This document shows positions 1,927 to 63,162 of a stretch of 64,000 nt of DNA, in pieces (position 1 is the first letter of the stretch; each line of letters begins with the position of its first letter). The stretch comes from Alteromonadaceae bacterium (GTDB taxonomy: Bacteria > Pseudomonadota > Gammaproteobacteria > Enterobacterales > Alteromonadaceae). A program made the translations under genes and the position numbers. The notes beneath the pieces were generated by a model that worked only from the letters and a program-made list of their open reading frames with translations, was not told the origin of the DNA and made no database searches. Location: contig CAXRBI010000099.1 in the NCBI GenBank assembly GCA_964229075.1, positions 12,457 to 76,456 of the forward strand, read 5' to 3'.

Positions 1927-4701
1927 GTGAGAAAAACACTCGGAGTGGCCTTGTTGGCTTCAGTATTAGCGGCATGTGGTCAAAAAAGTGCGGAAGAGCA
2001 TTATCAATTAGCGCAGCAAGCGTTAGAACAAGGCGGCAAAGAAACTGCTGTCATTGAACTAAAAAATGCCATTCGTATGGCGCCCGACAATGCGCAATAC
2101 CGATATCTTTTGGGACAAGTTTACTTTCAGCAGCGCAACTTTACTTTTGCTGAAAAAGAGTTTGAAAAGGCTTTGGAAAACGGCTTTTCATCGGAACAAA
2201 TCATACCTAAATTGTCCGTCATTTATCGTTCACTTGGCAACAATGACCGTTTGTTTAAGCTGACCGCCCGAGCCAAAGGCTTGCAAGCTCAGGATATGGC
2301 AAAGCTTAAGTACTACCAATTAGAGGCGTATGTTGGTCAAGGTAATTTTGACAAAGCCAAAGCCAGTTTAGAAGAACTCAAAAAAATCCCTGATCAAGGC
2401 GTGTATTCACAACTCGGTTTGGCGTTTCAGTTCATTATAAATAATGATCTAGAGGCGGCTATTGAACAAACAAAACGTTCGCTACAAATGTTTCCGGACC
2501 AACAGGATGCCTTGAAACTATTGGGTAATTTGTATCAGAACAATGGCCAGCAAGATGAGGCACTTGAAGTATATAAGTCCTATTTGGCCTTATACAGTGA
2601 CGATATTGAAGTTAAGTTTCGCGTTGCCCGTACGTTAAGTGGCCAAGATGATTTTGCAGCTGCTGAGCCGTTGGTTGACGACTTGTTGACTCAATACCCA
2701 AATCATCCAATGTTGCTGCAACTAAAAGCGGCGGCAAGGCTTAAGGCTGAAGACTACAGTGCGGCCAGCGAGTTTTCTGAGCGGGCAATTTTAGTTGAGC
2801 CAGAAGATGGCCCACTGCGACTAATAGCCGGCATAAGCCACTACTTCTTGTCTGAATTTGAAGACAGTTTGCAAGATTTAACCTTAATAGCGACTGAGTT
2901 GCCTGAATCTCATCCTGCTTTGCGTATGTTAGTCGATGTTCAAGTTCGATTGGGCTTAGCGCTTGATGCAAATGACACACTCACCAAATTCAGCGCGTTA
3001 ACTGAGTCTGAAATTGGCCTGGCGGCAGGTGTGGGACAAGCACTTGTGAGCAAAGGTGAGTTTCGCAAAGCCAGAGAAGTATTGGCGCAACAGGAAACAG
3101 AGATTGATTCTGCCAACGTATTAGCCAATGTCGCGCGCCTGAAATTATCTTTGAACGACGTATCCGGAATCGCTGATTTGGAAAAAGCGATTGAAAAGTT
3201 TGGTGTTGAGACGGATGAAAGTCCGGCAGAGAACCTTGAGGTTGTGTTAGGTCGTGCCTATTTGGCAACGGGCCAGTTTGACAAAGCACAAGCTCTGGCG
3301 AGTAAATGGATGAGCAATGAAGATTCCAAAGAAGTTGGTTACTTGCTTCAAAGCCAAGTGTATTTTGCTCAACAAGCTCCGGATAAAGCCAAAGCAACAC
3401 TTGAAGAAGGGGTTGCGGCGTTACCACAGTCGGTTGCACTTATTTACGCACTGGCAAATTCTCAAAACCTACAAGTTGAGAGCGAAAAAGCGACGAGTTT
3501 AACCTTGTTGCGTCGCGCATTGGACATCGCACCTGATTACGTTCCGGCTATCGTAAAATGGTATTTAGTAGCGCGAACCTCTGATAGCCAACAGCAAGTC
3601 GTAAGCTATTTAAATCAGCAACTAGAATCCCGACCTGAAACTGTGTCTTTGGCATTAACACTGGCCAGAATTCATGTGTTAGAGCAACGTGGTGCCGAGG
3701 CCATGGTCATCTTAAATCGATTTAAACAAGAAACGTCGGCGGTGTACCGACAAGTTTTAGCTCAAGCCTTAGTGCAAACGGGTGACATTCAAAATTTAAA
3801 AGACCTGTTCTCCGAGTGGTATCAAGACACTCCTAACAATGTGCAAGCCGTCGTGGGTATGATGCGTGTTTACGAATCTCGCGGTGAGTTTGACAGAGCA
3901 TTGTTGGTCGCAGACAAGTATCTGGTTGAACAAGGTGGTAATTCGGCACTGGTTAAGATATCCCGATTGAGTGTCATGGCTAAGGCCGGTCAATATGAAG
4001 ACTTAGCGAAAGAGTTAGATGAACTCGACAAAAATTTATATCAACTGCCGCCGGTACAAGGTTTGCGCGGTCAAGTCGCACTAAAAGCCTCGAAGTTTGC
4101 CGCAGCAGAGCCGCTGCTTTTGACCGCCTATAAAGCTCAACCGACGAGTCTAAATGCTGCTTTGCTTTCGCAAGCGTATCAAGGTGGTAAAGGGCTTGAT
4201 TTCACTCGTGGGTTCTTAAAACAACACCTAGATAAGCATCAAGATGATCAGCTAAACACCTTGCGCCTAGCCCAACTAGTGACAGGTAAAAACAATGCAG
4301 AAGCAAAAGACTATTATCTGAAAGCAATTGCCCTTGATGACGGACTGTTTGTGGCACATAACAACGTCGCCCATATGTTTTTGATGGAAAACGATTTGGA
4401 TTCGGCCTACAAACACGCCAAGCGTGCGAGTGAGTTGCAGCCAAGACAAGCCGATGTTTTGGATACGCTAGGGTATATCGAAATGCAAATGGGCCGTGAT
4501 GAAGCCGCCCTGCAGAATTTGTCGATGGCGATGGAAGTGTTTGGAGACCGCGTACCTGACGATGCCTTCTTAAACTATTTAGAAGCCTTGCTTAAAAATG
4601 GTGAAAAAAGGCTGGCTCAAAGACGTTTAGATCAACATTCGTTTAAGGGCAGTCCAGGTTCTCGACTGGATGATTTAAAACAGCAGTATCAGTTGCAATA
4701 A
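1927..4701 (+). CDS. prsT: TPR-repeat lipoprotein, PEP-CTERM/XrtA-system PrsT-like
   Basis: Lipobox VLAAC; AVIELKNAI...AEKEFEKAL start; about 920 aa of TPRs; C-terminal NNVAH...VLDTLGYI. Confidence 0.75.
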   Translation: MRKTLGVALLASVLAACGQKSAEEHYQLAQQALEQGGKETAVIELKNAIRMAPDNAQYRYLLGQVYFQQRNFTFAEKEFEKALENGFSSEQIIPKLSVIYRSLGNNDRLFKLTARAKGLQAQDMAKLKYYQLEAYVGQGNFDKAKASLEELKKIPDQGVYSQLGLAFQFIINNDLEAAIEQTKRSLQMFPDQQDALKLLGNLYQNNGQQDEALEVYKSYLALYSDDIEVKFRVARTLSGQDDFAAAEPLVDDLLTQYPNHPMLLQLKAAARLKAEDYSAASEFSERAILVEPEDGPLRLIAGISHYFLSEFEDSLQDLTLIATELPESHPALRMLVDVQVRLGLALDANDTLTKFSALTESEIGLAAGVGQALVSKGEFRKAREVLAQQETEIDSANVLANVARLKLSLNDVSGIADLEKAIEKFGVETDESPAENLEVVLGRAYLATGQFDKAQALASKWMSNEDSKEVGYLLQSQVYFAQQAPDKAKATLEEGVAALPQSVALIYALANSQNLQVESEKATSLTLLRRALDIAPDYVPAIVKWYLVARTSDSQQQVVSYLNQQLESRPETVSLALTLARIHVLEQRGAEAMVILNRFKQETSAVYRQVLAQALVQTGDIQNLKDLFSEWYQDTPNNVQAVVGMMRVYESRGEFDRALLVADKYLVEQGGNSALVKISRLSVMAKAGQYEDLAKELDELDKNLYQLPPVQGLRGQVALKASKFAAAEPLLLTAYKAQPTSLNAALLSQAYQGGKGLDFTRGFLKQHLDKHQDDQLNTLRLAQLVTGKNNAEAKDYYLKAIALDDGLFVAHNNVAHMFLMENDLDSAYKHAKRASELQPRQADVLDTLGYIEMQMGRDEAALQNLSMAMEVFGDRVPDDAFLNYLEALLKNGEKRLAQRRLDQHSFKGSPGSRLDDLKQQYQLQ

Positions 4702-4712
4702 GTGTTGCAGAT

Positions 4713-4738
4713 AAAAGGAAGCGAAAGCTTCCTTTTTT
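4713..4738 (+). terminator. Rho-independent terminator after prsT-like gene
   Basis: AAAAGGAAGC-GAAA-GCTTCCTTTTTT. Confidence 0.8.
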
Positions 4739-4855
4739 ATTTAGTACAGTTATGAGCCGGATAATTGCCTGAAAGGCAAATTAAGGTTGTGACGCCTAAC
4801 AGTTTAATTTACTGTTTTAATTGGAACTTTAAGCAAATAATAATAAGGGAGCGTC

Positions 4856-6982
4856 ATGTCAGCGCCGATTCAAATTCCAACTCTTCCGCAACAAGACGAC
4901 CAAAAACAGCAAGCTCAGAGGGCGTTCGACTTATCCATCGCCCATACCACATACAATTATATGACGTCTTACATGGAAGGCGTACCGCTATCCGCTGATC
5001 TACCGGATCAAGAAAAATTCAGTACAGCCTATGAGATTAAACTTCTGCCAGTCTTTAAAAGTATGGCGAGCAATCTTATCGCGGTGTTGGAGCGTTTGTT
5101 TAAAAAGCAGTTAGCAGACGATTTGTCTTTAAGTGAGTTTAAGCAACTGAAAGCGGCAATTGACGAGTTGGGCGATGGCATCGAGATCACTCATTTAGGT
5201 CAAGACGTCAAAGCTCTGAAATCGGTATTCAAAGCTATCGCGGATCTGCCAGATGTATTCGAACATCTAACCAACCTGCCGAAGGACATTGCCAAAGCCG
5301 TGTCAGGTTTGAAGAGGTTAGCGGTAGAAGCGTCTGAAAAAGGCGCAACAGAAATTCTCAAGAACACTTTATTTGACGTCCTGAGCACCGAGAATGGTCG
5401 CGATTATTTGCAAGCTGAGTCCATGCAAGATTATGAGGACTTGTTTGAGACCATAGCATTACCAGAGATGTTAACGATTCCGCAACAAGATTGGATGACC
5501 GGCACCGACAAGCCTTGCATGCAAGATTGGTTTTTTGGTTACCTGCAAATTGGCGGATTCAATACTACCAATTTACGCGGCGTACAATTAACTCAGCCGG
5601 CGGGAACAGAGATTGTTGCATTACCTGCCTTATTGTCTAAATTTCCAGTCACTGATGCTATTTTGCAACAAGAATCAGGTGACTCGTCAATAACACTTGA
5701 GCAAGCGGCCAAAGACAAACGCTTGTACGTCGTTGATTATGCCATGTTAGATGGTGCAGAGACCGTGCCTGTTCACGGCGAAGACCGTTATTTGGCAGCG
5801 CCCATTGCACTGTTCTATTTGAATCCAAAGTCACCAGAAGGCTATCCACCGTCAGATAATGGCGTGATGCAACCTATTGCGATTCAGCTGAGTCAGACGC
5901 CTGACCCTGATAAAGCGCCATTGTTCACCCCACAAGATGCAGCAGACGCCGGCGATGCAGAGCATTTTAAGTGGCGAATTGCAAAGTACTTTGTCAATGT
6001 TGCTTGCGCGATTCAGCACGAGTCCATCGCTCATTTAGGGGACTGTCATTTAACCTTAGATCCTATGGTGGTGGCGACCAATCGAAAGCTTTCGCAGCAA
6101 CATCCGATTATGGTGCTATTGAAACCCCATTTCCGTTTTACCATTAATATTAACAACAGCGCACTGCACAGTTTGATAATTCCTGGTGGTGTGGTTGCAA
6201 CCAACGTTGGGCCAAAGATTGAAGACACTTGGGAGCTGGTTCGACAGGCGCACTTAGCGTGGCAATTTGACGACAATAACCCGGATTCTATCTTTGATAT
6301 CCGTGGCGTTGCCGATATTCCAGACTTTCCATTTAAAGACGATACGATACTTCTTTGGCAAGCGCTGCAGAAATGGGTCAGTAGTTACCTCGATGTCTAC
6401 TACCCAGATACACAATCGATGCTTGATGACTACGAGTTGCAAGCGTGGATAAATGAATTGGTTTCACCAAACTACGCTAAAGTTGGCGGCATGAGAGGGC
6501 TTAAAGCGACAGGAAACGACAAACAGCCTTATGTGATAGATGATTTAGATTATCTCAAGAAAGTCATTTCGCAGATCATATACATCGCAGGTCCGCAGCA
6601 TGCTTCGGTGAACTACGCTCAGTACCCTTTGATGTCTTATATGCCGAGTGTTGCAGGTACCATTTACCAACCAGCACCGGATAAATCGACCCAGTTGAGC
6701 TCAGAGCAAGACTGTTTACCTTGGTATCCACCACTTGATGTGTCCTTGTATACTTTCCTGTTTGAGTACTTACTGAGTGGCGTTCAATATGACGTGTTCG
6801 GTCATTACAGTGAAGATCCAAAGATGCCTTACTTTAAAGACGACCGAGTGAAAGACGGCTTGAGCGAGTTTCACGCGGCACTGGCGCAAATTGAAGTGAC
6901 TATTCGTCAACGCAATAAGTCGCGCCCAATGGAATATCCGTTCCAGTTGCCGTCGCAAATTCCAAACAGCATTAGCATCTAG
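4856..6982 (+). CDS. Lipoxygenase (non-haem iron polyunsaturated fatty acid dioxygenase)
   Basis: HESIAHLGDCHL (H-x4-H-x4-H), GPQHASVNYAQ (H...N ligands), C-terminal PNSISI, LYVVDY, PIAIQL, WRIAK, DYELQAWINEL. Confidence 0.93.
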   Translation: MSAPIQIPTLPQQDDQKQQAQRAFDLSIAHTTYNYMTSYMEGVPLSADLPDQEKFSTAYEIKLLPVFKSMASNLIAVLERLFKKQLADDLSLSEFKQLKAAIDELGDGIEITHLGQDVKALKSVFKAIADLPDVFEHLTNLPKDIAKAVSGLKRLAVEASEKGATEILKNTLFDVLSTENGRDYLQAESMQDYEDLFETIALPEMLTIPQQDWMTGTDKPCMQDWFFGYLQIGGFNTTNLRGVQLTQPAGTEIVALPALLSKFPVTDAILQQESGDSSITLEQAAKDKRLYVVDYAMLDGAETVPVHGEDRYLAAPIALFYLNPKSPEGYPPSDNGVMQPIAIQLSQTPDPDKAPLFTPQDAADAGDAEHFKWRIAKYFVNVACAIQHESIAHLGDCHLTLDPMVVATNRKLSQQHPIMVLLKPHFRFTININNSALHSLIIPGGVVATNVGPKIEDTWELVRQAHLAWQFDDNNPDSIFDIRGVADIPDFPFKDDTILLWQALQKWVSSYLDVYYPDTQSMLDDYELQAWINELVSPNYAKVGGMRGLKATGNDKQPYVIDDLDYLKKVISQIIYIAGPQHASVNYAQYPLMSYMPSVAGTIYQPAPDKSTQLSSEQDCLPWYPPLDVSLYTFLFEYLLSGVQYDVFGHYSEDPKMPYFKDDRVKDGLSEFHAALAQIEVTIRQRNKSRPMEYPFQLPSQIPNSISI

Positions 6983-6993
6983 GGTGTTTTAGA

Positions 6994-7881
6994 ATGCAGG
7001 CGGCTTCGTTGAACGCAAAGCAGTGGTATGAGACGGCTAAGTGGTGTGACTACCAAGGGTTTGATATTCCATATTTCGACAGTGACGAAGCGGATGCTGG
7101 TAATGGCGAAGTATTGGTTTTGATCCATGGTTTTCCGACCTGCAGCTTGGACTGGGCCAAAATCTGGCAGCCTTTATCAAAGCACTATCGTTTGATTGCT
7201 TTTGATCTACTGGGGTTTGGCCGCAGTAGCAAACCTTTGATCAATTACACTATTTCGCGCCAAGCGGATATGATTGAATCTTTGCTGCACAAGCTGGGTG
7301 TTGGTAGGTTTGCGCTGGTGGCCCATGATTACGGAGATACCGTTGCGCAAGAATTGCTGTCACGAACAAATGTGGTTGAACAAACCTGGGCCTGTGTATT
7401 GTCTAATGGCGGGCTTTTTCCGGAGACACACAAGCCATTGTTGGTGCAAAAATTATTACTGAGTCCAATCGGTGGTCTAGTTGCGCAGTTGATGAGTTAT
7501 GAAAAGTTTAAACGCAGTATGGATAGCATTTGTCAGGTCAACATTGACGAGCAGGAGATACAAGAGTACTGGTTGCTGTTGACTGGAAGTAATGGCAAAC
7601 GAATATTCAGTCGTTTAATCAAGTATATGACCGAGCGCAAACGCCACAGGACACGTTGGGTTAGTGCACTGCAAAATTATCAAAAGCCGTTGTTGTTGAT
7701 CAACGGTTTAGACGATCCCATCAGTGGCGAACATATGGTCGAACGGTTTCACAAGCTCGTACCTAACGGCTTGGTCGAAGCGAAACGAGGCATTGGCCAT
7801 TATCCGCAATTGGAAGCTCCTGAGTGGTTTTCTGAATCACTGCAAGGGTTTCTCGAAAACCTCTCGAGTAAGCCAAGTTAG
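6994..7881 (+). CDS. Alpha/beta-fold hydrolase, MEST/epoxide-hydrolase-like
   Basis: HGFPT..DW oxyanion motif, DLLGFGRSSKP, nucleophile elbow AHDYGDTVAQELL, catalytic GHYPQLE. Confidence 0.85.
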   Translation: MQAASLNAKQWYETAKWCDYQGFDIPYFDSDEADAGNGEVLVLIHGFPTCSLDWAKIWQPLSKHYRLIAFDLLGFGRSSKPLINYTISRQADMIESLLHKLGVGRFALVAHDYGDTVAQELLSRTNVVEQTWACVLSNGGLFPETHKPLLVQKLLLSPIGGLVAQLMSYEKFKRSMDSICQVNIDEQEIQEYWLLLTGSNGKRIFSRLIKYMTERKRHRTRWVSALQNYQKPLLLINGLDDPISGEHMVERFHKLVPNGLVEAKRGIGHYPQLEAPEWFSESLQGFLENLSSKPS

Positions 7882-7896
7882 CCATTTTACAGGCAC

Positions 7897-7926
7897 AAAA
7901 AAAGCCACCTTATAGGTGGCTTTTTT
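7897..7926. terminator. Bidirectional terminator between the lox operon and the PiT gene
   Basis: AAAAAAAGCCACCT-TAT-AGGTGGCTTTTTT. Confidence 0.85.
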
Positions 7927-7936
7927 GTATCGATAA

Positions 7937-9220
7937 TTAAGCTACGTCAAATACTTGTTTCAAGATTAAGTAGATAACGATAGATAGCCCGGCACCAACT
8001 GGCAGCGTGACAACCCATGAAACCACGATGTTGCGCACAACACCTAAGTTCAGAGCCGCAATACCACGAGCAAGACCAACACCCAATACCGCACCAACAA
8101 GCGTTTGTGTAGTAGAGATAGGAAGGCCAGTACCTGAAGCGATGATAACCGTAGATGCTGCCGCCAATTCTGCTGCGAAACCGCGGCTTGGCGTTAGGTG
8201 AGTAATGCCTTTACCAATTGTGGCGATGACTCGATGACCGAACAATGCCAAACCAGCAACAATACCTAAACCACCCAGTGGTAAAATCCACCACGCCAGC
8301 GCTGCTTTCTTAGCGATTTCACCGTCGTTTTCAACAATGCTTACAACAGCGGCTAGTGGGCCAATTGCGTTTGCAACGTCATTTGAACCGTGAGCGAATG
8401 CCATACAACATGCGGTAACAACCATTAATACTGCAAAGATTTTTTCAACGTTGTTGAATTGCATTTCTTTATCAGCGTTTGGATCGAACTTAACGCGAGA
8501 CACAAAGTATTTACCGATAGCAGCAATGATTAAACCAACAAGTATCGCGTATATATAGGACTCAGTTGCAGAAATCGATAAGTCGCCAGATTTAACGACA
8601 TGCTTAAGACCTTTTTTAATGGTCACCAGCGCCATGATGAAGCCAGCTAGGAACATGTAGAAAGGCACGTAACGACGCGCGTTTTCAAGTGGTTTATCGG
8701 TGTCGAAGATAAGCTTCTGTGCGGATATAAAGATCCAATAAGCGATGAAACCTGAGATAGCAGGGGTGATAATCCAGCTACCAACGATACCGCCAACTTT
8801 ACCCCAGTTAACCGCATCCATACTTACACCAAACGCAGCGAAACCAACGATCGCACCAACAATTGAGTGCGTCGTCGATACTGGCCAGCCCAAATATGAT
8901 GCCACAGCTAACCATGTTGCTGCAGCGAACAATGCGGAGATCATACCCAATACTAAGTATTCCGGATTTGGAATGAATGGGGCAGAATCTATGATGCCTT
9001 TACGGATGGTTGAGGTAACTTCACCACCGGCAAGATACGCACCGGCGAACTCAAATACCATCGCAATTAAAATAGCTTGTTTGATTGTTAGCGCTTTAGA
9101 GCCAACTGACGTACCCATAGCGTTTGCTACGTCGTTAGCACCAATACCCCAAGCCATGAAAAAGCCAACTACGGCGGCAATCATGATTAACATCATGCCG
9201 TACGAAGAAATAATATCCAT
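7937..9220 (-). CDS. Inorganic phosphate transporter, PiT family
   Basis: GANDVANAMGTSVGS and HGSNDVANAIGP signature repeats, PVSTTH, many TM helices. Confidence 0.92.
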   Translation of the reverse strand: MDIISSYGMMLIMIAAVVGFFMAWGIGANDVANAMGTSVGSKALTIKQAILIAMVFEFAGAYLAGGEVTSTIRKGIIDSAPFIPNPEYLVLGMISALFAAATWLAVASYLGWPVSTTHSIVGAIVGFAAFGVSMDAVNWGKVGGIVGSWIITPAISGFIAYWIFISAQKLIFDTDKPLENARRYVPFYMFLAGFIMALVTIKKGLKHVVKSGDLSISATESYIYAILVGLIIAAIGKYFVSRVKFDPNADKEMQFNNVEKIFAVLMVVTACCMAFAHGSNDVANAIGPLAAVVSIVENDGEIAKKAALAWWILPLGGLGIVAGLALFGHRVIATIGKGITHLTPSRGFAAELAAASTVIIASGTGLPISTTQTLVGAVLGVGLARGIAALNLGVVRNIVVSWVVTLPVGAGLSIVIYLILKQVFDVA

Positions 9221-11807: not shown

Positions 11808-13457
11808 TTAGTGCTCTAGCGCTTTGTATTTTTCACGCAAATGGTTACGAATGCCGATGGCGGTAATGTTCAGTGCCACGATTACGGTAACCAATAGGAA
11901 TGACGTTGCGTAAACTAAAGGACGCGCTGCCTCTACGTTTGGACTTTGGAAACCAACATCGTAGATGTGGAAGCCTAAGTGCATAAATTTACGATCCAAA
12001 TGGACGAACGGGAAGTTGCCGTCAATTGGAAGCGTCGGTGCCATCTTAACTACACCAACCAGCATAAGTGGTGCTACTTCACCGGCTGCACGAGCAACTG
12101 CTAGGATAAGACCTGTCATGATCGCAGGGCTCGCCATCGGAATGATGATGCGCCACAGTGTTTCCGCTTTAGTCGCGCCTAGGGCTAAAGAGCCTTGACG
12201 TAGCGAGCTCGGAATACGAGACAAACCTTCTTCTGTTGAGACGATGACAACCGGTAGGGTTAAAATCGCAAGTGTTAATGCCGACCAGATAACGCCTGGA
12301 GTACCAAATGTTGGGCCAGGAAGTGCTTCAGGGTAGAACAATTGGTCAATTGAGCCACCTAACATGTAAACGAAGAAACCAAGACCAAATACACCGTAAA
12401 CAATTGAAGGTACACCCGCTAGGTTAATAACGGCAATACGGATAACCTTAGTAATCGCATTGTTACCGGCGTACTCGTGTAGGTAAATCGCCGCAACAAC
12501 ACCGAATGGTGTAACGATAACCGCCATCAACATAACCATAAATACGGTACCGAAGATTGCAGGGAATACACCACCTTCAGTGTTTGCTTCGCGTGGATCG
12601 TCAGAGATGAACTTACCAAGCTGTTTCCAGTAGCGGAAGAACTTGTCCATAAACGACATGTCGTTCGGGAATGCTACGTCTAAGATGTAGTTCATTGGCA
12701 ATGTGACAGATTCACCGCGCATGTCTTTTACGATAACTGCGTCACGTTCTGCTTGGTTACGGAAGCCAAATAGCTGCTTTTCAAATTCGCGGTATTCTGC
12801 TCTTAGTTCCGCTCGACGGTCGTTCAACTCACCAAGAGTTCTGTCGTTCAGTTTGCCTTCAAGCTCCAACTTACGCTCTTTCAGACGAAGCTTTTCAAGC
12901 TCGTAGTTAATTGCGCCGATTTCACCATTTTGCAATGACAGTGCTGCACCGTTTAAGTCAACTGCGCGTTCAATCAGTTCAAACAACAATTCTTCTTTGT
13001 TTTCTGTGATCGTAACGCCGTCTTTAACGACAGCCTCGACAAAACCGTAGAAGTTACCGTTTTTGCTGCGTTCGAAAACCGCTAAGCCCGAAGGTACGCT
13101 TTGTTTAACGATTTCCGGTGCTAGTAACCAACGAAAATCGAGCTCTACAAACTCACGGTTACCCGTTTTAACCAATAAACGTTCAACCGTTTCGCCCTGC
13201 GGGTTCTTAAACTGGATGCCAGATTCGGTTAAACGATCCGTTGGCACTTCTTCACGGTCATAGACTTCACCAATGATGGTGTAAGTTGTACCGTCTGCTT
13301 TTTCAATTTCAAATTGTTGAATGTCCGTTGGCCAGAAGAAAGATAGTCCTCGGCTCGCAATCAACAACAATAAACCAATAACTGATAACAAGCTGATGCT
13401 AACTGCACCCGCTGTCATCCACACCCAAGGGGCACCTGATTTAAACCATGATTTCAT
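11808..13457 (-). CDS. pstA: Phosphate ABC transporter permease PstA (long periplasmic-domain type)
   Basis: PREANTEGGVFPAIFGT, NLAGVPSIVYG, GSLALGATK. Confidence 0.95.
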   Translation of the reverse strand: MKSWFKSGAPWVWMTAGAVSISLLSVIGLLLLIASRGLSFFWPTDIQQFEIEKADGTTYTIIGEVYDREEVPTDRLTESGIQFKNPQGETVERLLVKTGNREFVELDFRWLLAPEIVKQSVPSGLAVFERSKNGNFYGFVEAVVKDGVTITENKEELLFELIERAVDLNGAALSLQNGEIGAINYELEKLRLKERKLELEGKLNDRTLGELNDRRAELRAEYREFEKQLFGFRNQAERDAVIVKDMRGESVTLPMNYILDVAFPNDMSFMDKFFRYWKQLGKFISDDPREANTEGGVFPAIFGTVFMVMLMAVIVTPFGVVAAIYLHEYAGNNAITKVIRIAVINLAGVPSIVYGVFGLGFFVYMLGGSIDQLFYPEALPGPTFGTPGVIWSALTLAILTLPVVIVSTEEGLSRIPSSLRQGSLALGATKAETLWRIIIPMASPAIMTGLILAVARAAGEVAPLMLVGVVKMAPTLPIDGNFPFVHLDRKFMHLGFHIYDVGFQSPNVEAARPLVYATSFLLVTVIVALNITAIGIRNHLREKYKALEH

Positions 13458-13490
13458 TTACAAATTCTCCAAAAATCTTACGGGTGCACG

Positions 13491-15737
13491 TTAAAGTGAG
13501 CTGTATTTTTCACGAAGACGTTGACGAACGAACTCCGCTAAAGTGTTAAATACAAAGGTAAAGACGAACAACACAAAGGCCGCCAAGAATAGGATGCGGT
13601 AGTGTGAACTACCCACTTCAGATTCTGGCATTTCAACCGCAATGTTCGCAGATAGAGTACGCATGCCTTGGAATATGCTCCAATCCATGATTGGTGTGTT
13701 ACCAGTCGCCATCAATACGATCATGGTTTCACCAACAGCGCGGCCAAGTCCCATCATAACTGCCGAGAAGATACCTGGACTCGCAGTTAACAATACGACC
13801 TTGGTCAATGTTTGCCACTGAGTCGCACCAAGTGCCAATGAGCCGCTTGATAAAGTTTTTGGTACGCTGAATACCGCATCTTCGGCAATTGAGAAGATGG
13901 TCGGGATTACAGCGAAGCCCATAGCGATACCAACAATAAGAGAGTTACGTTGGTCGAAGGTGATGCCAAGCTCGTTGGTAATGTACAAACGGGTATTACC
14001 ATCGAATAACCACTGTTCAACAGCAGGGCTTAAGGCAAATGCCAACCAGCCAACAAACATGACAACTGGGATCAAAATCAGTGAGTCATAGCCTGCAGGT
14101 ACGCTTTCTTTGATGCGTTTTGGAATGTTGTGCCACAACATGGCTGCAACCAAAATGGAGACAGGTAGCAAGATGAGGAACAGCACAACACCAGGTAAGT
14201 TTTCTTCAATAACCGGTGCTAACCAAAGGCCCGCTAAGAAACCTAAGATTACGGTCGGTAGTGCTTCCATGATTTCAACGGTAGGCTTAACCACCTTGCG
14301 CACGCTTGGTGCCATAAAGTAAGCAGTGTAAATAGCCGCTGCTAGTCCGATTGGAACCGCAAACAACATTGCATATGCCGCTGCTTTTAAGGTACCAAAC
14401 GAAATTGGAACTAAGCTGAATTTAGATTCAAAGTCGTCACTCGCTGACGAAGACTGCCAAATGTAGTCTGGCTCAGGGTAACCCTCATACCATACTTCTT
14501 GCCATAGACCAGACCAAGTTACTTCCGGGTGTTCGTTTTCTACTTTGAACACCGTTAAATCAGAGCCGTCTAGTGCAATCAGAGCATTAGAGCGAGGAGA
14601 GAAGTTTAAGTTACTGATTTTTTTACCAGTCAAGTTGCCTTGCCATAACTCAGCTTCAGACGTGGTATGGAACAAATTAACTTCGCCACTCGCTGTAGTA
14701 GCAGCAAATGTACGACGATAAAATTCTGGGTAGATTTTCACTACAGCGGTATCGGCTTGCTCGACTTCCATTTGGAACGAACGGGCGTTGATGAACGCTC
14801 TGCCATCTTTGCTGTTGGTTTCAAACCATTGGGCAATGTGGCCGTCAGAGTAGCCAATTACCAAAGAGTTCGCGCCAGCTAATAGCTGAGCCGCGGTCAA
14901 TTCACTGCCTGTGCGGTTAACTTTCACTGTGTACAGTAGACGAACATTTTCGCCGTCACGCGCGTTGGCAACAAATACTTCACTGTCCGTTACAATGAAA
15001 ATACGAGAAACATCAGGGGATACCAACAATTGCTTTACTTCGCCAGTGACAAAGTTCAAATCAGATTGATACGCTTCCCATGTCATTTCTTCGGTGAACA
15101 TGTCTTCTTCACCTTCTAAGCGCGCAAAGACAACCTGACCATTGTCTAATTGATACAGGATACCAACTGCACTTTCCTCAGAAGCAAAGCTAAATTGCTT
15201 AATGACTTTGCCTGGGCTTTGTAACGCTGGAGTCGCTGCTTCACCGAGCGGATAATCGAGCACCGGCGTCAATACGCGAACGTCATTAGGGAATGACACT
15301 CTGAATGATGGCTTGACTACGGTTAACTCACCGCGGTTGTTGATATAACCGTAATGGGCTTGGTGCGGCGCACTTGCCGCAAACGCGGCAATTTCACCGT
15401 CGATGCTGACTGTTTCTGAATTCAACTTCTCGCCAGCCTTATCGCCCTTAACGCGATAAAAATCGACGACGCCTGAATCAGTCAAACCAAATGCAATTTC
15501 AGTTTGCTCTTCAATACCCATTGCGGCGTATTCAGTCGTAATGTTTTCAATTTTGTTACGAACTTCAATATGGGCCGAATTAAATACTGGTTGAACGACA
15601 TACAAAAGGTAGAAAAATATAAGTAACAAAGCACACAAAACCATGACGCCACCCGCCATAACTCCGTACTTTGCCGCTTTATCCTTGAACAAACGTTTTT
15701 TCTCAGTTTTAAGAAACGTTTCTGAGGTTTGAGACAT
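13491..15737 (-). CDS. pstC: Phosphate ABC transporter permease PstC (large periplasmic domain)
   Basis: EALPTVILGF, SLALGATQWQT, GRAVGETMIVLMATGN. Confidence 0.93.
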   Translation of the reverse strand: MSQTSETFLKTEKKRLFKDKAAKYGVMAGGVMVLCALLLIFFYLLYVVQPVFNSAHIEVRNKIENITTEYAAMGIEEQTEIAFGLTDSGVVDFYRVKGDKAGEKLNSETVSIDGEIAAFAASAPHQAHYGYINNRGELTVVKPSFRVSFPNDVRVLTPVLDYPLGEAATPALQSPGKVIKQFSFASEESAVGILYQLDNGQVVFARLEGEEDMFTEEMTWEAYQSDLNFVTGEVKQLLVSPDVSRIFIVTDSEVFVANARDGENVRLLYTVKVNRTGSELTAAQLLAGANSLVIGYSDGHIAQWFETNSKDGRAFINARSFQMEVEQADTAVVKIYPEFYRRTFAATTASGEVNLFHTTSEAELWQGNLTGKKISNLNFSPRSNALIALDGSDLTVFKVENEHPEVTWSGLWQEVWYEGYPEPDYIWQSSSASDDFESKFSLVPISFGTLKAAAYAMLFAVPIGLAAAIYTAYFMAPSVRKVVKPTVEIMEALPTVILGFLAGLWLAPVIEENLPGVVLFLILLPVSILVAAMLWHNIPKRIKESVPAGYDSLILIPVVMFVGWLAFALSPAVEQWLFDGNTRLYITNELGITFDQRNSLIVGIAMGFAVIPTIFSIAEDAVFSVPKTLSSGSLALGATQWQTLTKVVLLTASPGIFSAVMMGLGRAVGETMIVLMATGNTPIMDWSIFQGMRTLSANIAVEMPESEVGSSHYRILFLAAFVLFVFTFVFNTLAEFVRQRLREKYSSL

Positions 15738-22597: not shown

Positions 22598-23521
22598 ATG
22601 GCACGGGAACAATGGGGCATCTGTGGAGAAGCGAATTTACATGGACTTCATTTGTTTTTTAACACTCATGAAGGCTACGAGCCTGTTATTAGAGAAGCGT
22701 TAAGCCAACTGCCTGATATCTTCAACGAGATCAACGAACAGTTTTCTGAGGCGATGTTTTCCGGTGTTGTCGCCATAGGCGCTAACTTTTGGAACGAGCT
22801 TTACCCCGACAGTTACCCACCTGGTTTAAAACCTTTCCCGGCAATGCGTCACGAAGATAGGCACATGCCAGCAGTGCCCGTCGATTTATTCATTCAACTG
22901 CGCTCTGATAGACAAGACGTCAACTACATCGCAAGTCGCCGAATCACCAGCTTGTTTGGTGAAATGGTGGAACTGATAGAGCAAGTGCCTTGTTTCCGCT
23001 ATTTAGATGGTCGCGATTTAACCGGCTTTGTTGATGGCACGGAAAATCCAAAGGGAAGAAAACGCAGAGAAGTCGCTCTGTTATCTGACGCAGGTAAGTT
23101 CACGGCGGGCAGTTTTGTTCATGTACAACGTTATCGTCATCATTTAAATAAGTGGGACAACTTACCCACCGACGAACAAGAACTCATTATAGGTCGCACT
23201 AAAATTGACGATGTGGAGTTTGACTCCGAAAACATGCCGGATACGGCGCATGTGAAACGCTCCAACGTAAAAGATGAAAACGGCAAAACAATGGAGTTAA
23301 TGCGCCAAAGCATGCCTTACGGTAATTTGACGACACAGGGTCTGTTATTTATTTCTTACTGCGCGCACCCAACGTATTTTGAAACGATTTTGTCGAACAT
23401 GGTATTTGGCAGTGATGAAGGCAGTTATGATCACTTACTAAATTACACAACCGCTGAGACTGGCGCCGCATTTTTCGCACCTTCAATTGACTTCCTAATC
23501 AATCAAGGCAACTTGGAATAA
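22598..23521 (+). CDS. Dyp-type haem peroxidase (YfeX-like)
   Basis: RDLTGFVDGTENP, TAHVKR, RQSMPYG, AFFAPS. Confidence 0.92.
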   Translation: MAREQWGICGEANLHGLHLFFNTHEGYEPVIREALSQLPDIFNEINEQFSEAMFSGVVAIGANFWNELYPDSYPPGLKPFPAMRHEDRHMPAVPVDLFIQLRSDRQDVNYIASRRITSLFGEMVELIEQVPCFRYLDGRDLTGFVDGTENPKGRKRREVALLSDAGKFTAGSFVHVQRYRHHLNKWDNLPTDEQELIIGRTKIDDVEFDSENMPDTAHVKRSNVKDENGKTMELMRQSMPYGNLTTQGLLFISYCAHPTYFETILSNMVFGSDEGSYDHLLNYTTAETGAAFFAPSIDFLINQGNLE

Positions 23522-29108: not shown

Positions 29109-29600
29109 ATGAGTCAGATTTCCATGATTGCCGCGATGGCAAACAATCGAGTGATTGGTAAAGACAATGATATGCCATGGCACATGCCGGCAGATCTTAA
29201 ATATTTTAAGTCAGTAACTATGGGTAAGCCCGTAATTATGGGCAGAAAGACCTTTGAGTCCATTGGTCGTCCCTTACCTGGACGCAAGAATGTTGTGATT
29301 ACCAGAAACTCGCAATGGCACGCTGATGGTGTTGAAGTTGTTAGCTCCACTGAAGAGGCGCTTAACGTTCTCAGTGAAGCAGAAGAAATAATGGTGATTG
29401 GTGGCGGTAATATTTATCTGCAATTATTGCCTTTAGCCACTACACTTTATTTGACCTTTATTGATTTAGAAGTAGAAGGTGACACGCAGTTTCCAGATTG
29501 GGAAAAAGCGGCAAATTGGCAAGAAGTAGCTCGCGAGAGCCACGTTGCGGATGAGAAAAATGCGCATCCTTATCAGTTTGTTACTTTAAAAAAATTGTAG
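29109..29600 (+). CDS. folA: Dihydrofolate reductase
   Basis: MPWHMPADLKYFK, IMGRKTFESIGRPLPGR, IGGG. Confidence 0.97.
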   Translation: MSQISMIAAMANNRVIGKDNDMPWHMPADLKYFKSVTMGKPVIMGRKTFESIGRPLPGRKNVVITRNSQWHADGVEVVSSTEEALNVLSEAEEIMVIGGGNIYLQLLPLATTLYLTFIDLEVEGDTQFPDWEKAANWQEVARESHVADEKNAHPYQFVTLKKL

Positions 29601-57665: not shown

Positions 57666-58706
57666 ATGGCAGGATATTTCGCAATATTTCTGGTCGTGAT
57701 TACCTTGGCCAGCGGTTTAATTTGGCTGATTGATGCACGTTTTCACGCGCCAAAAAGACGAGAAGAAATTGCTTTGGCTTTAAAAGCCGCAGGGCATGAC
57801 ATCAACATCGAAGCGATTCGTGGCACCAGAGCATATCGCCGATTGGGTGCCGCTGGATTATCCACCTCAGCAATGAATTCTATCATCAAGGATTTAAAGC
57901 TGGGTGATGGCGAAAAGGTTGATATCACTTCGTTTCAAGAGATGGCTCCACAACCAGCAATCGCGGAAACTGCACAGTCTATCTTCCCGATACTTGCCGC
58001 TATCACCATTTTCCGTTCGTTCCTGTTTGAGCCGTTTCAGATCCCGACCGGTTCAATGATGCCAACTATGCTGGTGGGTGACTTTATTTTGGTACAAAAA
58101 TACACCTACGGCGTGCATGACCCGATTTGGCGTAAGGAGTTGATCACTACGGGTTCTCCTGAGCGCGGCGACATTGCAGTGTTTAAGTTTCCTGGTAATG
58201 AAAACATAGATTACATCAAACGTGTTGTCGGTCTGCCTGGCGATAGAGTGGTGTACTACAAGAAGCAACTGTTTGTTCAGCCTAGCTGTGAACGCTCGCC
58301 TGAGGCCTGTGACAAGCTAGTACCGATGGAAATCACTGAAGTTCAAACCAGTGAATTCATCAACCGCTACGGCACCTTTTTACAGCAATCAACTGAGCAA
58401 CTTGGTGACGTATCTCATCAGATTTTGGTCGACCCAACTCAGCCGGAGCTAAAGCGTCGATACTATCAACAGCCGGGCACAAAAGTTGGCGAGTGGATTA
58501 TTCCAGAAGACAAGTACTTCTTGATTGGTGACAACCGAGACAACAGTGAAGACAGCCGTTTTTGGGGTTTCGTAAGCGAAGACCAGCTAGTTGGTAAAGC
58601 GGTCTTTATCTGGATGAGTTTTGTGTATAACGATGGCGCCATCAGTTGGTTGCCAAACTGGGCACCTGTGGACATTCGTTTCTCGCGTTTAGGCTCGGTA
58701 CAATAA
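57666..58706 (+). CDS. lepB: Signal peptidase I
   Basis: EPFQIPTGSMMPT, DYIKRVVGLPGD, GDNRDNS.DSRFWG. Confidence 0.96.
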   Translation: MAGYFAIFLVVITLASGLIWLIDARFHAPKRREEIALALKAAGHDINIEAIRGTRAYRRLGAAGLSTSAMNSIIKDLKLGDGEKVDITSFQEMAPQPAIAETAQSIFPILAAITIFRSFLFEPFQIPTGSMMPTMLVGDFILVQKYTYGVHDPIWRKELITTGSPERGDIAVFKFPGNENIDYIKRVVGLPGDRVVYYKKQLFVQPSCERSPEACDKLVPMEITEVQTSEFINRYGTFLQQSTEQLGDVSHQILVDPTQPELKRRYYQQPGTKVGEWIIPEDKYFLIGDNRDNSEDSRFWGFVSEDQLVGKAVFIWMSFVYNDGAISWLPNWAPVDIRFSRLGSVQ

Positions 58707-58717
58707 TTTGCAAATTC

Positions 58718-58770
58718 AAGTCAGCTTGAGGGAGTTCTGCTAGAGTTACCTCAAGCTGGCTTTATTTTTT
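58718..58770 (+). promoter_or_regulatory. Long hairpin in the rnc leader (rncO-like RNase III site and/or attenuator)
   Basis: AAGTCAGCTTGAGG...CCTCAAGCTGGCTT, about 20-bp stem with an internal mismatch, followed by a T run, just before rnc. Confidence 0.6.
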
Positions 58771-58782
58771 TAAGAGATAAGA

Positions 58783-59460
58783 TTGATCAAAAAAGATTAT
58801 CAACAACTGGCCAAAAAGCTTGGTTATCAGTTTCAAGATGAACGGTTGCTTATTCAAGCGCTAACGCATCGCAGCTATAAAGGCGCGCACAATGAGCGCC
58901 TTGAATTTATCGGCGACTCGTTGCTGGGGATGTTCGTGGCTGAAGCCCTGTATTTTAACTTCCCTAAGGCAACCGAAGGTGAGTTGACTCGGATGCGTTC
59001 ACAAATCGTTAAAGGCCAAACACTTGCCGAAGTAGCCAAAGAGTTTGGCTTAAGTGATTGGTTGCGATTGGGGCCTGGCGAGATGAAAAGTGGCGGGTTC
59101 CGCCGCGACTCAATTTTAGAAGATGCTGTTGAAGCGATAATTGGTGCGGTTTACCTCGACTCGGATACCGAAAGCTGTAAACAGTTTGTTCTCAAATTAA
59201 TCTCAGAGAGATTAGCGAAAGTCGACCCCAAAAACGCACTAAAAGACGCAAAAACACGATTGCAGGAATATCTGCAGTCTCGCAAACGTCCATTGCCTGT
59301 ATATGAAGTGGTTGAGGTCACAGGGCAAGCTCATAACCAAATGTTTACCATGAGGTGTTTGTTGGACACAGGTGACGGTTATGAAGCGAAAGGAACCAGT
59401 CGACGTAAAGCAGAACAAGCCGCAGCAGAAAAAGCACTTGAGGAAATCAACGGTGAGTAA
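58783..59460 (+). CDS. rnc: Ribonuclease III
   Basis: [17 protein letters not shown]-terminal dsRBD; TTG start. Confidence 0.97.
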
Positions 59461-60418
59461 TAAAGAACAGAATCAACAAGAACTCGATGCCTTGTTGCAA
59501 AACTTAAACAACAGAGCAGACTTAAATCAGACGAAAAAGTGTGGTTTAGTTGCCATCGTTGGTCGTCCAAATGTTGGTAAATCGACATTAATGAACAACA
59601 TCCTAGAGCAGAAAATATCGATCACCTCTAAAAAGCCACAAACCACTCGTCACCGCATCCTCGGTATCCACACCGAAGGCGATGAACAGACGGTTTATGT
59701 GGATACTCCTGGGCTACACAAAGAAGAAAAGCGAGCCATCAACAAGTTGATGAACCGAGCTGCGTCGAGCGCGCTGGGCGACGTAGAAGTTGTTTTGTTT
59801 GTGGTTGAAGCACTTAAGTGGCACGAAGACGATGAGATGGTCCTGAATAAGATTCGCCGTTCGAAAAAGCCAACTTTATTATTGATCAACAAAGTCGACA
59901 CCATTAAACACAAAGAAGAATTGATGCCGTTTTTACAAATGGTGTCAGACAAACACACATTTGAAGAAATTATTCCTATCTCTGCAGAGAAAGGCACCAA
60001 CGTTGAGCCGATTAAAGCGGCGGTATCGAGCTTCTTACCAGAGAATCCATTTTTCTTCCCAGAAGATGATGTGACAGACCGCAGCAGCCGTTTTATGGCG
60101 GCGGAAATTGTTCGCGAAAAGTTGATGCGATTTATGGGCGAAGAGTTGCCTTATAGCGCGACTGTTGAGATTGAGCAGTTCAAGTGGGACGAAAAGATGT
60201 GGCGCATCAATGCCCTGATCTTGGTCGAGCGAGAAGGCCAAAAGAAGATGGTGATTGGTAAGAAAGGTGAAAAGCTGAAGATCATAGGTCGTGATGCCCG
60301 ACAAGATCTTGAACGTTTGTTAGATGCAAAAGTGTATTTGGAGCTTTGGGTTAAAGTGAAAAGCGGTTGGGCAGACGATGAGCGAGCTTTGCGTTCACTG
60401 GGTTATGGTGAAGACTGA
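59453..60418 (+). CDS. era: GTPase Era
   Basis: [24 protein letters not shown] domain VIGKKG; GTG start overlapping the rnc stop. Confidence 0.97.
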
Positions 60419-60420
60419 TC

Positions 60421-61173
60421 GTGAGGTCATTGCCTGAAGTTAAATTGGCGTTTGTGTTACACAGCCGGCCGTTTAAAGAAAATCAGGCGATTTTAGAGCT
60501 TCTGGTTGAAGGTGAGGGACGGCTCAGTGCCGTCACTTACAAAGGCAGCAAAAAGAACACCGCAAAAACGGCGCTATTACAGCCGTTTCGACCAATCAAG
60601 GTCATTATTGAAAAAGACACCGGGCTTAGAAAACTTAAACACATTGAAGCGGCACCTGATTTAAAAAACAGCGCGTTTTTAACTCAAGGCAAACCGCTGT
60701 TTTGTGGTTTTTATTTGAATGAACTGCTTTGCCGATTGTGCGCCGCTGACGCCCATTTCCCTGAATTGTATCCTGTGTATTTGGCGACGATTAAGAGGTT
60801 GCAGTGGTCTGAAACTGAAAACCCATCGCCCTTAATGTTAGAGCGCAGCCTCAGGCAATTCGAGTTCGCGTTATTGTCGCAACTCGGTTACGGCATCGAT
60901 TTAAGCCACACCGTCGATACAGATCAATCCATTGAGCCCGAATTGCAGTATGAACTATTTCAAGACACGGGATTTGTGTTTGGCGCACATTCTCGCAATG
61001 CGTGGCTTGGTGAAGACATTCTTTTGTTAGCACAGTTCCTAGAAGGACAAGAGTTAACTGAGGAACGTCAATTGCGGGCAGCTAAGTCGGCAAAGTTATT
61101 ACTAAGAACGTGTTTGCATCGCCATTTGGGCGACAAACCTTTAAAATCTCGTGAATTATTTAGAGCGGGCTAA
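60421..61173 (+). CDS. recO: DNA repair protein RecO
   Basis: [42 protein letters not shown]. Confidence 0.95.
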
Positions 61174-61187
61174 TTTTCGGAGAAAGC

Positions 61188-61925
61188 ATGAGCGAAATTC
61201 ATTTAGGCGTTAACATCGATCACATTGCGACTTTACGTCAAGCACGTGGGACAAGTTACCCTGATCCAATTCATGCCGCGGCAGTTGCTGAACATGCCGG
61301 AGCAAGTGGTATTACGATTCACCTTAGAGAAGACCGCCGACACATACAAGACCGAGACGTCTACGTGTTGGCGAAAACTATTCAAACTCGAATGAACTTA
61401 GAAATGGCGGTGACCGACGAGATGATTGGAATCGCTGAAGAGGTGAAACCTGAGTTTGTATGTTTGGTGCCTGAAAAGCGAGAAGAGTTGACGACCGAGG
61501 GCGGTTTGGACGTTAAGGGTCAACTTGATAAAGTAACAGACGCGGTAAAACGATTGGCCGCTGCTGGCGCAAAAGTGTCTCTTTTTATCGATGCCGATGA
61601 AGCGCAAATTGATGCCACAGTCGCAACAGGCGCTCCGTATATCGAAATTCACACAGGTCATTATGCCGATGCTGAAACGGATGAGGCTCGTGATGCTGAA
61701 CTGGCAAAGATCATTGCAGGTGTGAAATACGCCGCGAGCAAAGGGTTGATAGTTAATGCTGGCCATGGTTTGCACTACCACAATGTTAAACCGATTGCGG
61801 AAATCCCGGAAATCTACGAGCTCAACATTGGTCATGCGATCATCGCCAGAGCATCGACCGATGGTCTCGAAAAAGCTGTACGCGACATGAAAACCCTAAT
61901 GGTTGAAGCGCGCCAAGGAGTTTAA
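61188..61925 (+). CDS. pdxJ: Pyridoxine 5-phosphate synthase
   Basis: [34 protein letters not shown]. Confidence 0.98.
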
Positions 61926-61928
61926 GAC

Positions 61929-62303
61929 ATGTCTGTGCGAGGACTAGGAACTGACATTGTAGAGATCACACGAATTGAACAAGCGTTGAACAAGAGTGAC
62001 CGCCTTGCACAGAGGGTTCTTACTGACACCGAATTAACCATTTTTCGGCAACATCATGAACCGGCACGATATCTAGCGAAACGCTGGGCCGCCAAGGAGG
62101 CCGCGGCAAAAGCCCTTGGTATAGGCATTGGTCGAGGCATTTCCTTTCATCACTTTGAGACTTCAAACGATGACTTGGGTGCCCCTAAGTTGGTATTGAC
62201 GGCGGCGGCATTGGCCAAAGCCGAAGAACTTGGTGTCAGTTCGGTTCACATTTCCATTTCAGATGAAACTCACTACGCAATGGCGACAGTAGTACTGAGT
62301 TAG
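61929..62303 (+). CDS. acpS: Holo-ACP synthase
   Basis: GLGTDIVEI.R, LAKRWAAKEA..KALG, HISISDE. Confidence 0.97.
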   Translation: MSVRGLGTDIVEITRIEQALNKSDRLAQRVLTDTELTIFRQHHEPARYLAKRWAAKEAAAKALGIGIGRGISFHHFETSNDDLGAPKLVLTAAALAKAEELGVSSVHISISDETHYAMATVVLS

Positions 62304-62364
62304 TCGCAAACTCTCGGTATTCGTCTATAGTTTGATTATTATTAAAATATTCAGATGCTTGGCG

Positions 62365-63150
62365 ATGAAAAAAGAGGGTTTACAGCGCAGCTTTTATGTT
62401 TTCGTATTGGTGTTAACCGCACTGTATGCGAAGCTTGTCCCTGCGCAAAGTTCGTTAGCTGAAGACGTCGAAAAACTGAGTTACTACACCGAAAATTATC
62501 CCCCCGCCAATTTCTACGATAACTATGTGCTGAAGGGTATTTCTGTCGATACACTCAAGTTAATTTGGCAGAAGTTAGATGCGACCCCCAAAGAGATTTC
62601 TTTACAGCCCTGGGCTCGAGCCTATCGCAATGTGCTGCTGAGGGACAACACGGTGCTCTTTACCATGTCGAGAACCCCACAGCGGGAAAAAGACTTTAAA
62701 TGGGTTGGTCCAGTGTTTCATTCAAACCATGTTTTGGTCGCTAAAAGCAGTCGTAAATTTCAATTTGATTCAATAGAGCAAGTCTTTCAGCATCGGGTCG
62801 CGACAATACGCGGCGACATTTCCGAGATTTCCTTGCGCCAGCAAGGCTTCCCTGAAGTCAGAATGGGCAAAGTGTCGGATTTAAAGCAGGCGCTTTTGAT
62901 GCTGCGTAATGACCGGGTCGATATGATGATGATATCGATTCACGGCTTTCAACATGTGTTGTCACAGCTAAATGAGTCTCGTAATAAGTACGAAATTGTC
63001 TGGCGGGTTAACAAAATAGGCAATTACTACGCCTTTAATAAAAACACCTCAGATGCGGTTATCGATGTTTTCCAGCAGGCGTTCGATTCTCTTGAACAAG
63101 AACGCCTAGCGATCAAAAAGAAATACGAACTACCAGCCGAAGAATACTAA
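62365..63150 (+). CDS. Periplasmic substrate-binding protein (family 3-like), orphan
   Basis: Signal peptide; TENYPPANF, PWARAY, RTPQRE..FKWVGP. Confidence 0.8.
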   Translation: MKKEGLQRSFYVFVLVLTALYAKLVPAQSSLAEDVEKLSYYTENYPPANFYDNYVLKGISVDTLKLIWQKLDATPKEISLQPWARAYRNVLLRDNTVLFTMSRTPQREKDFKWVGPVFHSNHVLVAKSSRKFQFDSIEQVFQHRVATIRGDISEISLRQQGFPEVRMGKVSDLKQALLMLRNDRVDMMMISIHGFQHVLSQLNESRNKYEIVWRVNKIGNYYAFNKNTSDAVIDVFQQAFDSLEQERLAIKKKYELPAEEY

Positions 63151-63162
63151 TGAAAACCGCGA

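Follow-up and report, generated by a model that had tools for sequence, protein, structure and literature searches.

The 64,000-nucleotide stretch analyzed here, called the window throughout (Alteromonadaceae bacterium, contig CAXRBI010000099.1), carries two adjacent forward-strand open reading frames (ORFs) that are the subject of this study: a lipoxygenase (LOX; P0001) gene at 4856-6982, encoding 708 amino acids, and an alpha/beta-hydrolase (P0002) gene at 6994-7881, encoding 295 amino acids. They are separated by an intergenic spacer of only 11 nt (6983-6993, + strand), which contains no terminator and in which no structure beyond that of shuffled sequences was found (z 0.33). An earlier note on this DNA had described a complete LOX followed 11 nt downstream by an Asp-nucleophile hydrolase, and coordinates, motifs, and Pfam matches agree with that description.

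Both ends of the unit are marked by hairpins. The left boundary is an intrinsic-terminator-like hairpin at the end of prsT (4713-4736, + strand; -13.7 kcal/mol, z -4.0), found by the consensus scan. The right boundary is a bidirectional terminator hairpin at 7895-7928, on both strands, common to the hydrolase gene and the convergent PHO4-family gene (7937-9220, - strand). This second hairpin, which was not among the terminators of the consensus scan, came from folding against shuffles. Its folding energy is -17.9 kcal/mol (z -4.5) when read on the + strand and -18.7 kcal/mol (z -5.5) when read on the - strand, values that none of 200 shuffles matched. The terminators that the earlier note had placed at 4713-4738 and 7897-7926 are thus there, with slightly different ends. 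Rfam models run over 4300-8300 gave only subthreshold matches, on the terminator hairpin. Upstream, the flanking gene is of the PrsT type (TIGR02917, 439 bits versus a cutoff of 312); downstream, on the other strand, lie PHO4, PhoU_div, PhoU, PstB, PstA, and PstC, so that Pfam and NCBIfam matches bear out the proposed setting between a PrsT-like gene and a Pho cluster. Given the 11-nt spacer without an internal terminator and the terminators on either side, a bicistronic LOX-hydrolase transcript is the natural reading of the gene anatomy.

In the 119-nt intergenic region upstream of LOX (4737-4855, + strand), direct reading shows AAGGGAG at 4845-4851, which resembles a Shine-Dalgarno sequence; the consensus scan detected no sigma-70 promoter there. 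Two palindromes lie in this region, at 4765-4779 and 4798-4816, one with 5-nt arms around a 5-nt center and the other with 6-nt arms around a 7-nt center; they are candidate operator or regulator sites. Composition and codon usage are native for both LOX and the hydrolase, with no sign of a foreign origin, and a repeat search around the pair found neither flanking direct repeats nor traces of mobile elements.

P0001 matches the Pfam LOX model PF00305 over residues 204-690 (E 2.6e-57; 195.2 bits versus a cutoff of 23.6), the catalytic domain following a helical N terminus, and the whole protein can be aligned with a solved bacterial LOX, 8x8f (E 3.1e-63). All elements of the iron-ligand pattern (His-x4-His, His-x3-Asn, and a C-terminal Ile) are present at positions taken from the 8x8f alignment, and the residues concerned (H388, H393, H582, N586, and, at the C terminus, I708) do not vary among 20 aligned sequences of the LOX family; we take them to be the iron ligands from what is generally known of LOX enzymes. 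Ala436 is also invariant in the family. It probably occupies the position that governs S/R stereocontrol and, if so, would predict an S-lipoxygenase. In the AlphaFold2 (AF2) model (pLDDT 75.5), the N-terminal ~200 amino acids are helical (residues 16-176, at low confidence) and no beta-barrel or PLAT barrel is seen; inspection found no signal peptide on the LOX. Judged from its sequence, P0001 is a complete iron lipoxygenase, predicted to be cytoplasmic.

P0002 matches Abhydrolase_1 (E 4.8e-26) and Abhydrolase_6 in Pfam and carries the motifs HGFP (45-48), AHDYGD (110-115), and GHYP (268-271). Within these motifs and beyond, none of the residues H45, G46, P48, D112, D241, and H269 varies among 28 aligned sequences of the hydrolase family. 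The cap (~138-230) adds a further invariant set in the same 28 sequences: N138, G140, F142, P143, E144, H146, Q152, W193, Y211, R215, R219, and W222. The predicted triad consists of D112 as the nucleophile, D241 as the acid, and H269 as the base. It was assigned by sequence position and model strands; D241 and H269 follow strands 233-238 and 260-264, respectively, of an AF2 model of high quality (pLDDT 92.1, pTM 0.92) with cap helices at 150-228. Pfam, motifs, the AF2 model, Foldseek, and the tree together identify P0002 as a predicted Asp-nucleophile alpha/beta hydrolase of an uncharacterized family.

Which reaction this hydrolase catalyzes is a harder matter. Foldseek searches of the PDB with the model returned epoxide hydrolases (the Cif-like Cfl1 and Cfl2 at TM 0.79-0.82, CorEH at 0.74, MdEH at 0.74, and 1ehy at 0.75), haloalkane dehalogenases, and a phospholipase. 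PDB searches by sequence and by profile gave the same mixed classes, with mostly the N-terminal core aligned, and a protein Atlas search returned only generic alpha/beta-hydrolase clusters. Several features expected of an epoxide hydrolase are in place: an alpha/beta core with a helical cap, an HGXP motif with an Asp nucleophile, and a His base with an acidic partner. Of the two cap residues that would polarize the oxirane (Tyr/Tyr, or His/Tyr as in Cif), Y211 is the sole invariant cap tyrosine, and the invariant H146 is a candidate for its partner. On balance, P0002 would be most like an epoxide hydrolase, a putative member of that class.

The dehalogenases among these matches raise the possibility that P0002 acts on halogenated marine compounds, as a haloalkane- or haloacid-type dehalogenase unrelated to LOX. 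Many dehalogenase structures align at TM 0.78-0.81 (subfamily III 8ooh at 0.81), and the top NCBIfam matches, NF002938 at 87 bits and NF002043 at 71 bits, point the same way. However, these scores fall far below their cutoffs (87 versus 241 and 71 versus 265, with NF002873 at 50.5 versus 466). Moreover, D112 is followed by Tyr113, which is nearly invariant, and not by Trp, and the oxyanion-type motif reads HGFP, with Phe47, and not HGNP; these are the positions of the halide-stabilizing Trp and Asn in haloalkane dehalogenases. We regard a dehalogenase as highly improbable.

The reading that we favor, if only tentatively and with somewhat more doubt than confidence, is that the pair is a young, lineage-specific two-gene operon of a Psychrosphaera-like marine gammaproteobacterium, in which LOX and the hydrolase are functionally coupled via epoxide hydrolysis. 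We imagine that LOX would act on free polyunsaturated fatty acids (PUFA), probably from an exogenous source (algae or a host), and dioxygenate them to hydroperoxides, and that a hydroperoxide-isomerase or leukotriene A synthase-type side activity of LOX itself would turn these into epoxy-alcohols or allylic epoxides. D112 of the hydrolase would then attack the epoxide, with Y211, perhaps together with H146, polarizing the oxirane, and H269 and D241 would subsequently hydrolyze the alkyl-enzyme intermediate. The products would be tri- or dihydroxy oxylipins. Such coupling may have arisen after LOX left both its ancestral locus and a giant kinase-GAF sensor that accompanies LOX in most relatives (see below). 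Operon anatomy, intact and family-invariant catalytic residues, fold class, a long-stemmed clade of LOX-linked hydrolases, and native composition all support this reading. That the pair might form a self-contained module, with products of the hepoxilin/trioxilin class, is conjecture.

The chemistry envisioned in the earlier note, in which epoxy-alcohols made by LOX are opened by an epoxide hydrolase, does occur in bacteria (PMC5760719, PMC13319228). Hydroperoxide-isomerase activity is reported for a few bacterial LOX enzymes (PMC13319228). As to the substrate, the note had allowed for PUFA of the bacterium's own, algal, or host origin. A description of a Psychrosphaera from a brown-alga phycosphere gives C16:0, C16:1, C18:1, and hydroxy acids as the major fatty acids, with no PUFA among them (PMC11324256); the exogenous, algal or host, sources are therefore the likelier ones, and an endogenous source is disfavored.

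Several observations weigh against epoxide hydrolysis by a coupled pair, the first of them concerning the hydrolase itself. All 21 NCBIfam matches of P0002 are far below their cutoffs, and no curated epoxide-hydrolase model is reached; among the cap tyrosines, only Y211 is invariant in the 28 sequences. The epoxide-hydrolase-like identity proposed at the outset therefore holds in part: the Asp nucleophile is present and epoxide hydrolases are among the nearest folds, but the curated cutoffs, the lone invariant cap Tyr, and the mixed fold matches speak for caution.

This leaves room for coupling of a different kind, in which the hydrolase frees PUFA from lipids or processes a LOX-derived lactone or oxidized ester. 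The top match of P0002, in both Foldseek and profile searches, is indeed the phospholipase A PlaF (6i8w; E 4.8e-20 and TM 0.77, profile E 9.3e-25). The pair of epoxide-binding tyrosines is incomplete, and fused members of the hydrolase family carry arylesterase/lactonase-type propellers. Set against this, the Asp nucleophile is invariant in the family (28/28), whereas PlaF has a Ser at the aligned position. In the alpha/beta-hydrolase fold, Asp nucleophiles are typical of epoxide hydrolases and dehalogenases and not of lipases. A lipase or esterase function is thus disfavored by the nucleophile, and we consider coupling without epoxide hydrolysis quite unlikely.

The second group of contrary observations concerns recurrence. 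A scan based on the LOX alignment, with one genome per GTDB species, yielded 125 relatives; 80 loci, with up to 10 kb of flank, were kept, and 45 matches were not. By tblastn, none of the 80 related loci has a hydrolase homologue adjacent to LOX, with at least 900 bp of downstream room in 74 of them. The sole tblastn match of the hydrolase in these loci (L008) is weak, at 24% identity, and lies ~5 kb upstream on the other strand. Pfam gave the same picture: no alpha/beta-hydrolase domain occurs in the 104 immediate nonkinase neighbors of LOX in 77 loci, a scan that excluded the kinase cluster described below, LOX, and antisense ORFs and for which three loci that lack an intact LOX ORF had been set aside. 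Even the six Psychrosphaera loci, whose LOX is 77-79% identical to that of the window, have neither the hydrolase nor the prsT and pho flanks. For comparison, LepA of the window is 89-95% identical to that of Psychrosphaera and 87% identical to that of Flocculibacter.

Among protein clusters, the closest LOX relatives stand at 99% and 84% identity, followed by 24 clusters at 76-79%; the hydrolase homologue clusters stand at 97%, 64%, and 61%, followed by clusters at 54% or less. LOX and hydrolase clusters agree in the length of their longest contig in two cases, 54622 for LOX 99% with hydrolase 97% and 4498 for LOX 84% with hydrolase 64%, which suggests that the pair also exists in the species of the window itself and in one more distant relative; recurrence would then be limited to one or two close relatives. 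No other of the best 120 hydrolase homologue clusters shares such a length with a listed LOX cluster. The hydrolase family itself is broad, counting 324 representative clusters at E <= 1e-30, and most of it has no link to LOX. It occurs in Microbulbifer, Exilibacterium, Pseudomonas sp. HK3, and Saccharospirillaceae, none of which is among the 80 kept LOX loci. Some family members are fused to other domains (P0402, P0436, P0448, P0452, P0458, and P0370), with an N-terminal NAD-dependent epimerase/short-chain dehydrogenase/reductase, an arylesterase/SGL-type propeller, or a C-terminal amidohydrolase; no fusion to LOX was found among these fused members. The earlier note had asked whether the lox-hydrolase adjacency recurs across genomes. 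Beyond the closest relatives it does not in the 80 loci kept, and no recurrent two-gene module was found in these independent genomes; coupling is therefore not a property of this LOX family. What survives of the two-step module for epoxide and trihydroxy oxylipins is the operon anatomy and the enzyme classes, and what does not is the recurrence of the adjacency and a curated epoxide-hydrolase identity.

Such a distribution invites a simpler account, namely, that a rearrangement joined LOX to a hydrolase of a widespread family with no shared pathway, any cotranscription being incidental. Newly formed operons often join unrelated genes. The absence of the adjacency from all related LOX loci and the breadth of the hydrolase family are in keeping with such a junction, as is the position of LOX elsewhere in three Psychrosphaera loci (L004, L005, and L045), beside the acpS-pdxJ-recO-era-rnc-lepB cluster that occupies the far end of the window. 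Nevertheless, an Asp-nucleophile hydrolase at operon spacing would be rare by chance and is chemically apt for LOX-derived epoxides, and the pair appears to have been retained while LOX diverged to 84% and the hydrolase to 64% identity. The LOX-linked hydrolases also stand apart in the tree: P0002, P0123, P0124, and P0125 form one clade (support 1.0) whose stem, at 0.67 substitutions per site, exceeds the 95th percentile of internal branches (0.59). A chance junction is, in our estimate, unlikely, though a serious competitor to the coupled operon.

The genomic history of LOX can be followed further in these relatives. In all three of the Psychrosphaera loci just named, LOX lies a few kilobases from a homologue of the window gene at 63163-63975; in L004 and L005 it is also near homologues of acpS, pdxJ, recO, and era, and in L004, additionally, near rnc and lepB. 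The corresponding regions (L004:10096-16577, L005:14319-21940, and L045:15915-16730) match 57666-63975 of the window, at its far right end. The LOX gene at 4856 would therefore have been relocated by ~56 kb or would be a second copy. In searches of plasmids by tblastn, LOX matched eight plasmid records at ~30% identity, and the hydrolase gave no match at E <= 1e-20.

Across the LOX family, the recurrent neighbor of LOX is a giant protein of 1700-2225 amino acids with the architecture Pkinase-AAA_16-TPR-GAF (kinase-STAND-GAF) and, at its C terminus, either GGDEF or HisKA-HATPase-receiver-Hpt. In 51 of the 80 loci it lies within 10 kb of LOX; where at least 5 kb is available on both sides, the figure is 38 of 44 loci. 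Its gene is mostly convergent and just downstream of LOX and sometimes divergent and upstream, and in six loci it follows LOX directly in the same orientation; examples from the series L004-L079 are L006:2968-9645, L008:12148-17247, and L045:2982-9617 (- strand). The association spans Gammaproteobacteria, Betaproteobacteria, and metagenome-assembled genomes (MAGs) of spirochaetes. Beside the LOX of the window, the giant kinase is absent. Our search of the literature found no paper linking it to bacterial lipoxygenases, and the Kurakin preprint mentions no hydrolase, kinase, or neighboring genes.

Other immediate neighbors of LOX are often signaling proteins as well: PAS-GGDEF-EAL, 7TMR-DISM GGDEF, receiver-PAS-SpoIIE phosphatase, and receiver-TPR proteins and a methyl-accepting chemotaxis protein (L007:12304-14619, L012:7991-9709, L014:7992-9710, L055:5690-7555, L027:748-2445, L033:2672-4321, L048:8140-9789, and L004:7334-8449). 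Because the neighbors are so often of this kind, gene context suggests that the LOX family is tied to signal transduction, in particular to cyclic di-GMP. The family-wide association of LOX with a giant signaling kinase may be more telling about the purpose of bacterial lipoxygenases than the pairing with a hydrolase is.

Two further neighborhoods were noted among the relatives. In five Burkholderiales-type loci, an NADPH-dependent flavin mononucleotide (FMN) reductase gene directly follows LOX on the same strand (L017:12208-12753, L018:12210-12749, L024:12214-12753, L025:12210-12749, and L059:5957-6547); its product might serve LOX as a redox partner or deal with hydroperoxides. In a Leptospiraceae MAG, a SnoaL-like protein of the NTF2 fold is encoded after LOX on the same strand (L021:3493-3993). 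Epoxide hydrolases of the limonene-epoxide-hydrolase type have the NTF2 fold, and this may be an independent pairing of LOX with an epoxide-hydrolase-like protein.

Elsewhere in the window, PstA (549 amino acids) and PstC (748 amino acids), encoded at 11808-15737 on the - strand, are about twice as long as the NCBIfam models that they match, which have 272 and 296 positions; because these matches fall only in the C-terminal halves, both proteins have long N-terminal extensions. A Dyp-type peroxidase gene lies at 22598-23521 on the + strand (TIGR01413, 235 bits), ~15 kb from LOX and with no evident link to it. The dihydrofolate reductase gene at 29109-29600 (+ strand) reaches the cutoff of the type 3 FolA model (207 bits versus 168) and stays below that of the DfrA3 trimethoprim-resistance model (221 versus 350), so it is a housekeeping folA and not a resistance gene.

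If the pair is a natural operon, it would provide a matched set of enzymes for making chiral fatty acids with two or three hydroxyl groups. A large uncharacterized hydrolase family would thereby gain its first substrate class, and we would see one way in which a marine bacterium living with algae may convert the PUFA of its host. The value of the pair is limited, since it occurs in a single lineage and its chemistry is predicted. The combination of LOX and epoxide hydrolase is also already known as chemistry; animals use it to make hepoxilins, trioxilins, and several pro-resolving mediators, and it has been rebuilt from genes of Myxococcus xanthus that are not linked. At best, then, the operon in the window is a young and lineage-specific form of a route already known.

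Among known LOX proteins, 8x8f, LoxA of Pseudomonas aeruginosa (4g32), and the Cyanothece enzyme (5med) resemble that of the window in having the iron LOX catalytic domain without a PLAT barrel. All three are distant relatives, and the alignments of LoxA and 5med span the catalytic part only. LoxA is secreted, whereas the LOX of the window has no signal peptide. We identified no characterized member of its own subfamily of ~710-amino-acid proteins.

Close structural counterparts of P0002 are also instructive. Cfl1 and Cfl2 of Burkholderia cenocepacia (7jqx, 7jqy, and 7jqz) share its fold, helical cap, and Asp nucleophile, but sequence identity is only 18-19%. In Cif, the ring-opening pair is His/Tyr and not Tyr/Tyr; the invariant H146 and Y211 of P0002 may fit such a pair. 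Cif is secreted, whereas P0002 has no signal peptide. With the haloalkane dehalogenases DhmeA (8ooh, subfamily III) and DbeA (4k2a), P0002 shares the fold and the Asp-His-acid arrangement (TM 0.79-0.81).

A different comparison is offered by mammalian MEST/PEG1. A report on this protein describes it as epoxide-hydrolase-like and of undefined activity, with Ser-His-Asp at 145-147 and one conserved epoxide-coordinating Tyr (PMC5481029). The elbow of P0002, which bears the nucleophile, also reads x-His-Asp, and its cap has one invariant Tyr; it differs in lacking an N-terminal membrane anchor. The motifs may be more closely similar still, and we treat kinship as a lead only. One can envision that, in one Psychrosphaera lineage, LOX was uncoupled from the kinase and joined to a fast-diverging member of an orphan Asp-hydrolase family, which became a dedicated oxylipin epoxide hydrolase, and, if the presumed resemblance holds, that this family is the bacterial counterpart of MEST. 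This is a long shot, but, if true, it would offer a first hint from genomes that hydrolases of the MEST type act on oxidized fatty-acid epoxides.

The closest parallel in chemistry comes from Myxococcus xanthus. No natural LOX-epoxide hydrolase operon was found in our search of the literature, and a 2026 review (PMC13319228) speaks of no operon, gene cluster, or neighboring genes, but in M. xanthus a 12-LOX (MXAN_1745), an 11-LOX (MXAN_1744), and an epoxide hydrolase (MXAN_1644) make hepoxilins and trioxilins (An et al. 2018, PMC5760719). The route from LOX via epoxy-alcohols to trihydroxy acids is the one proposed here. The arrangement of the genes is different: by locus tags, the epoxide hydrolase gene of M. 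xanthus lies ~100 genes from the LOX genes, compared with 11 nt in the window.

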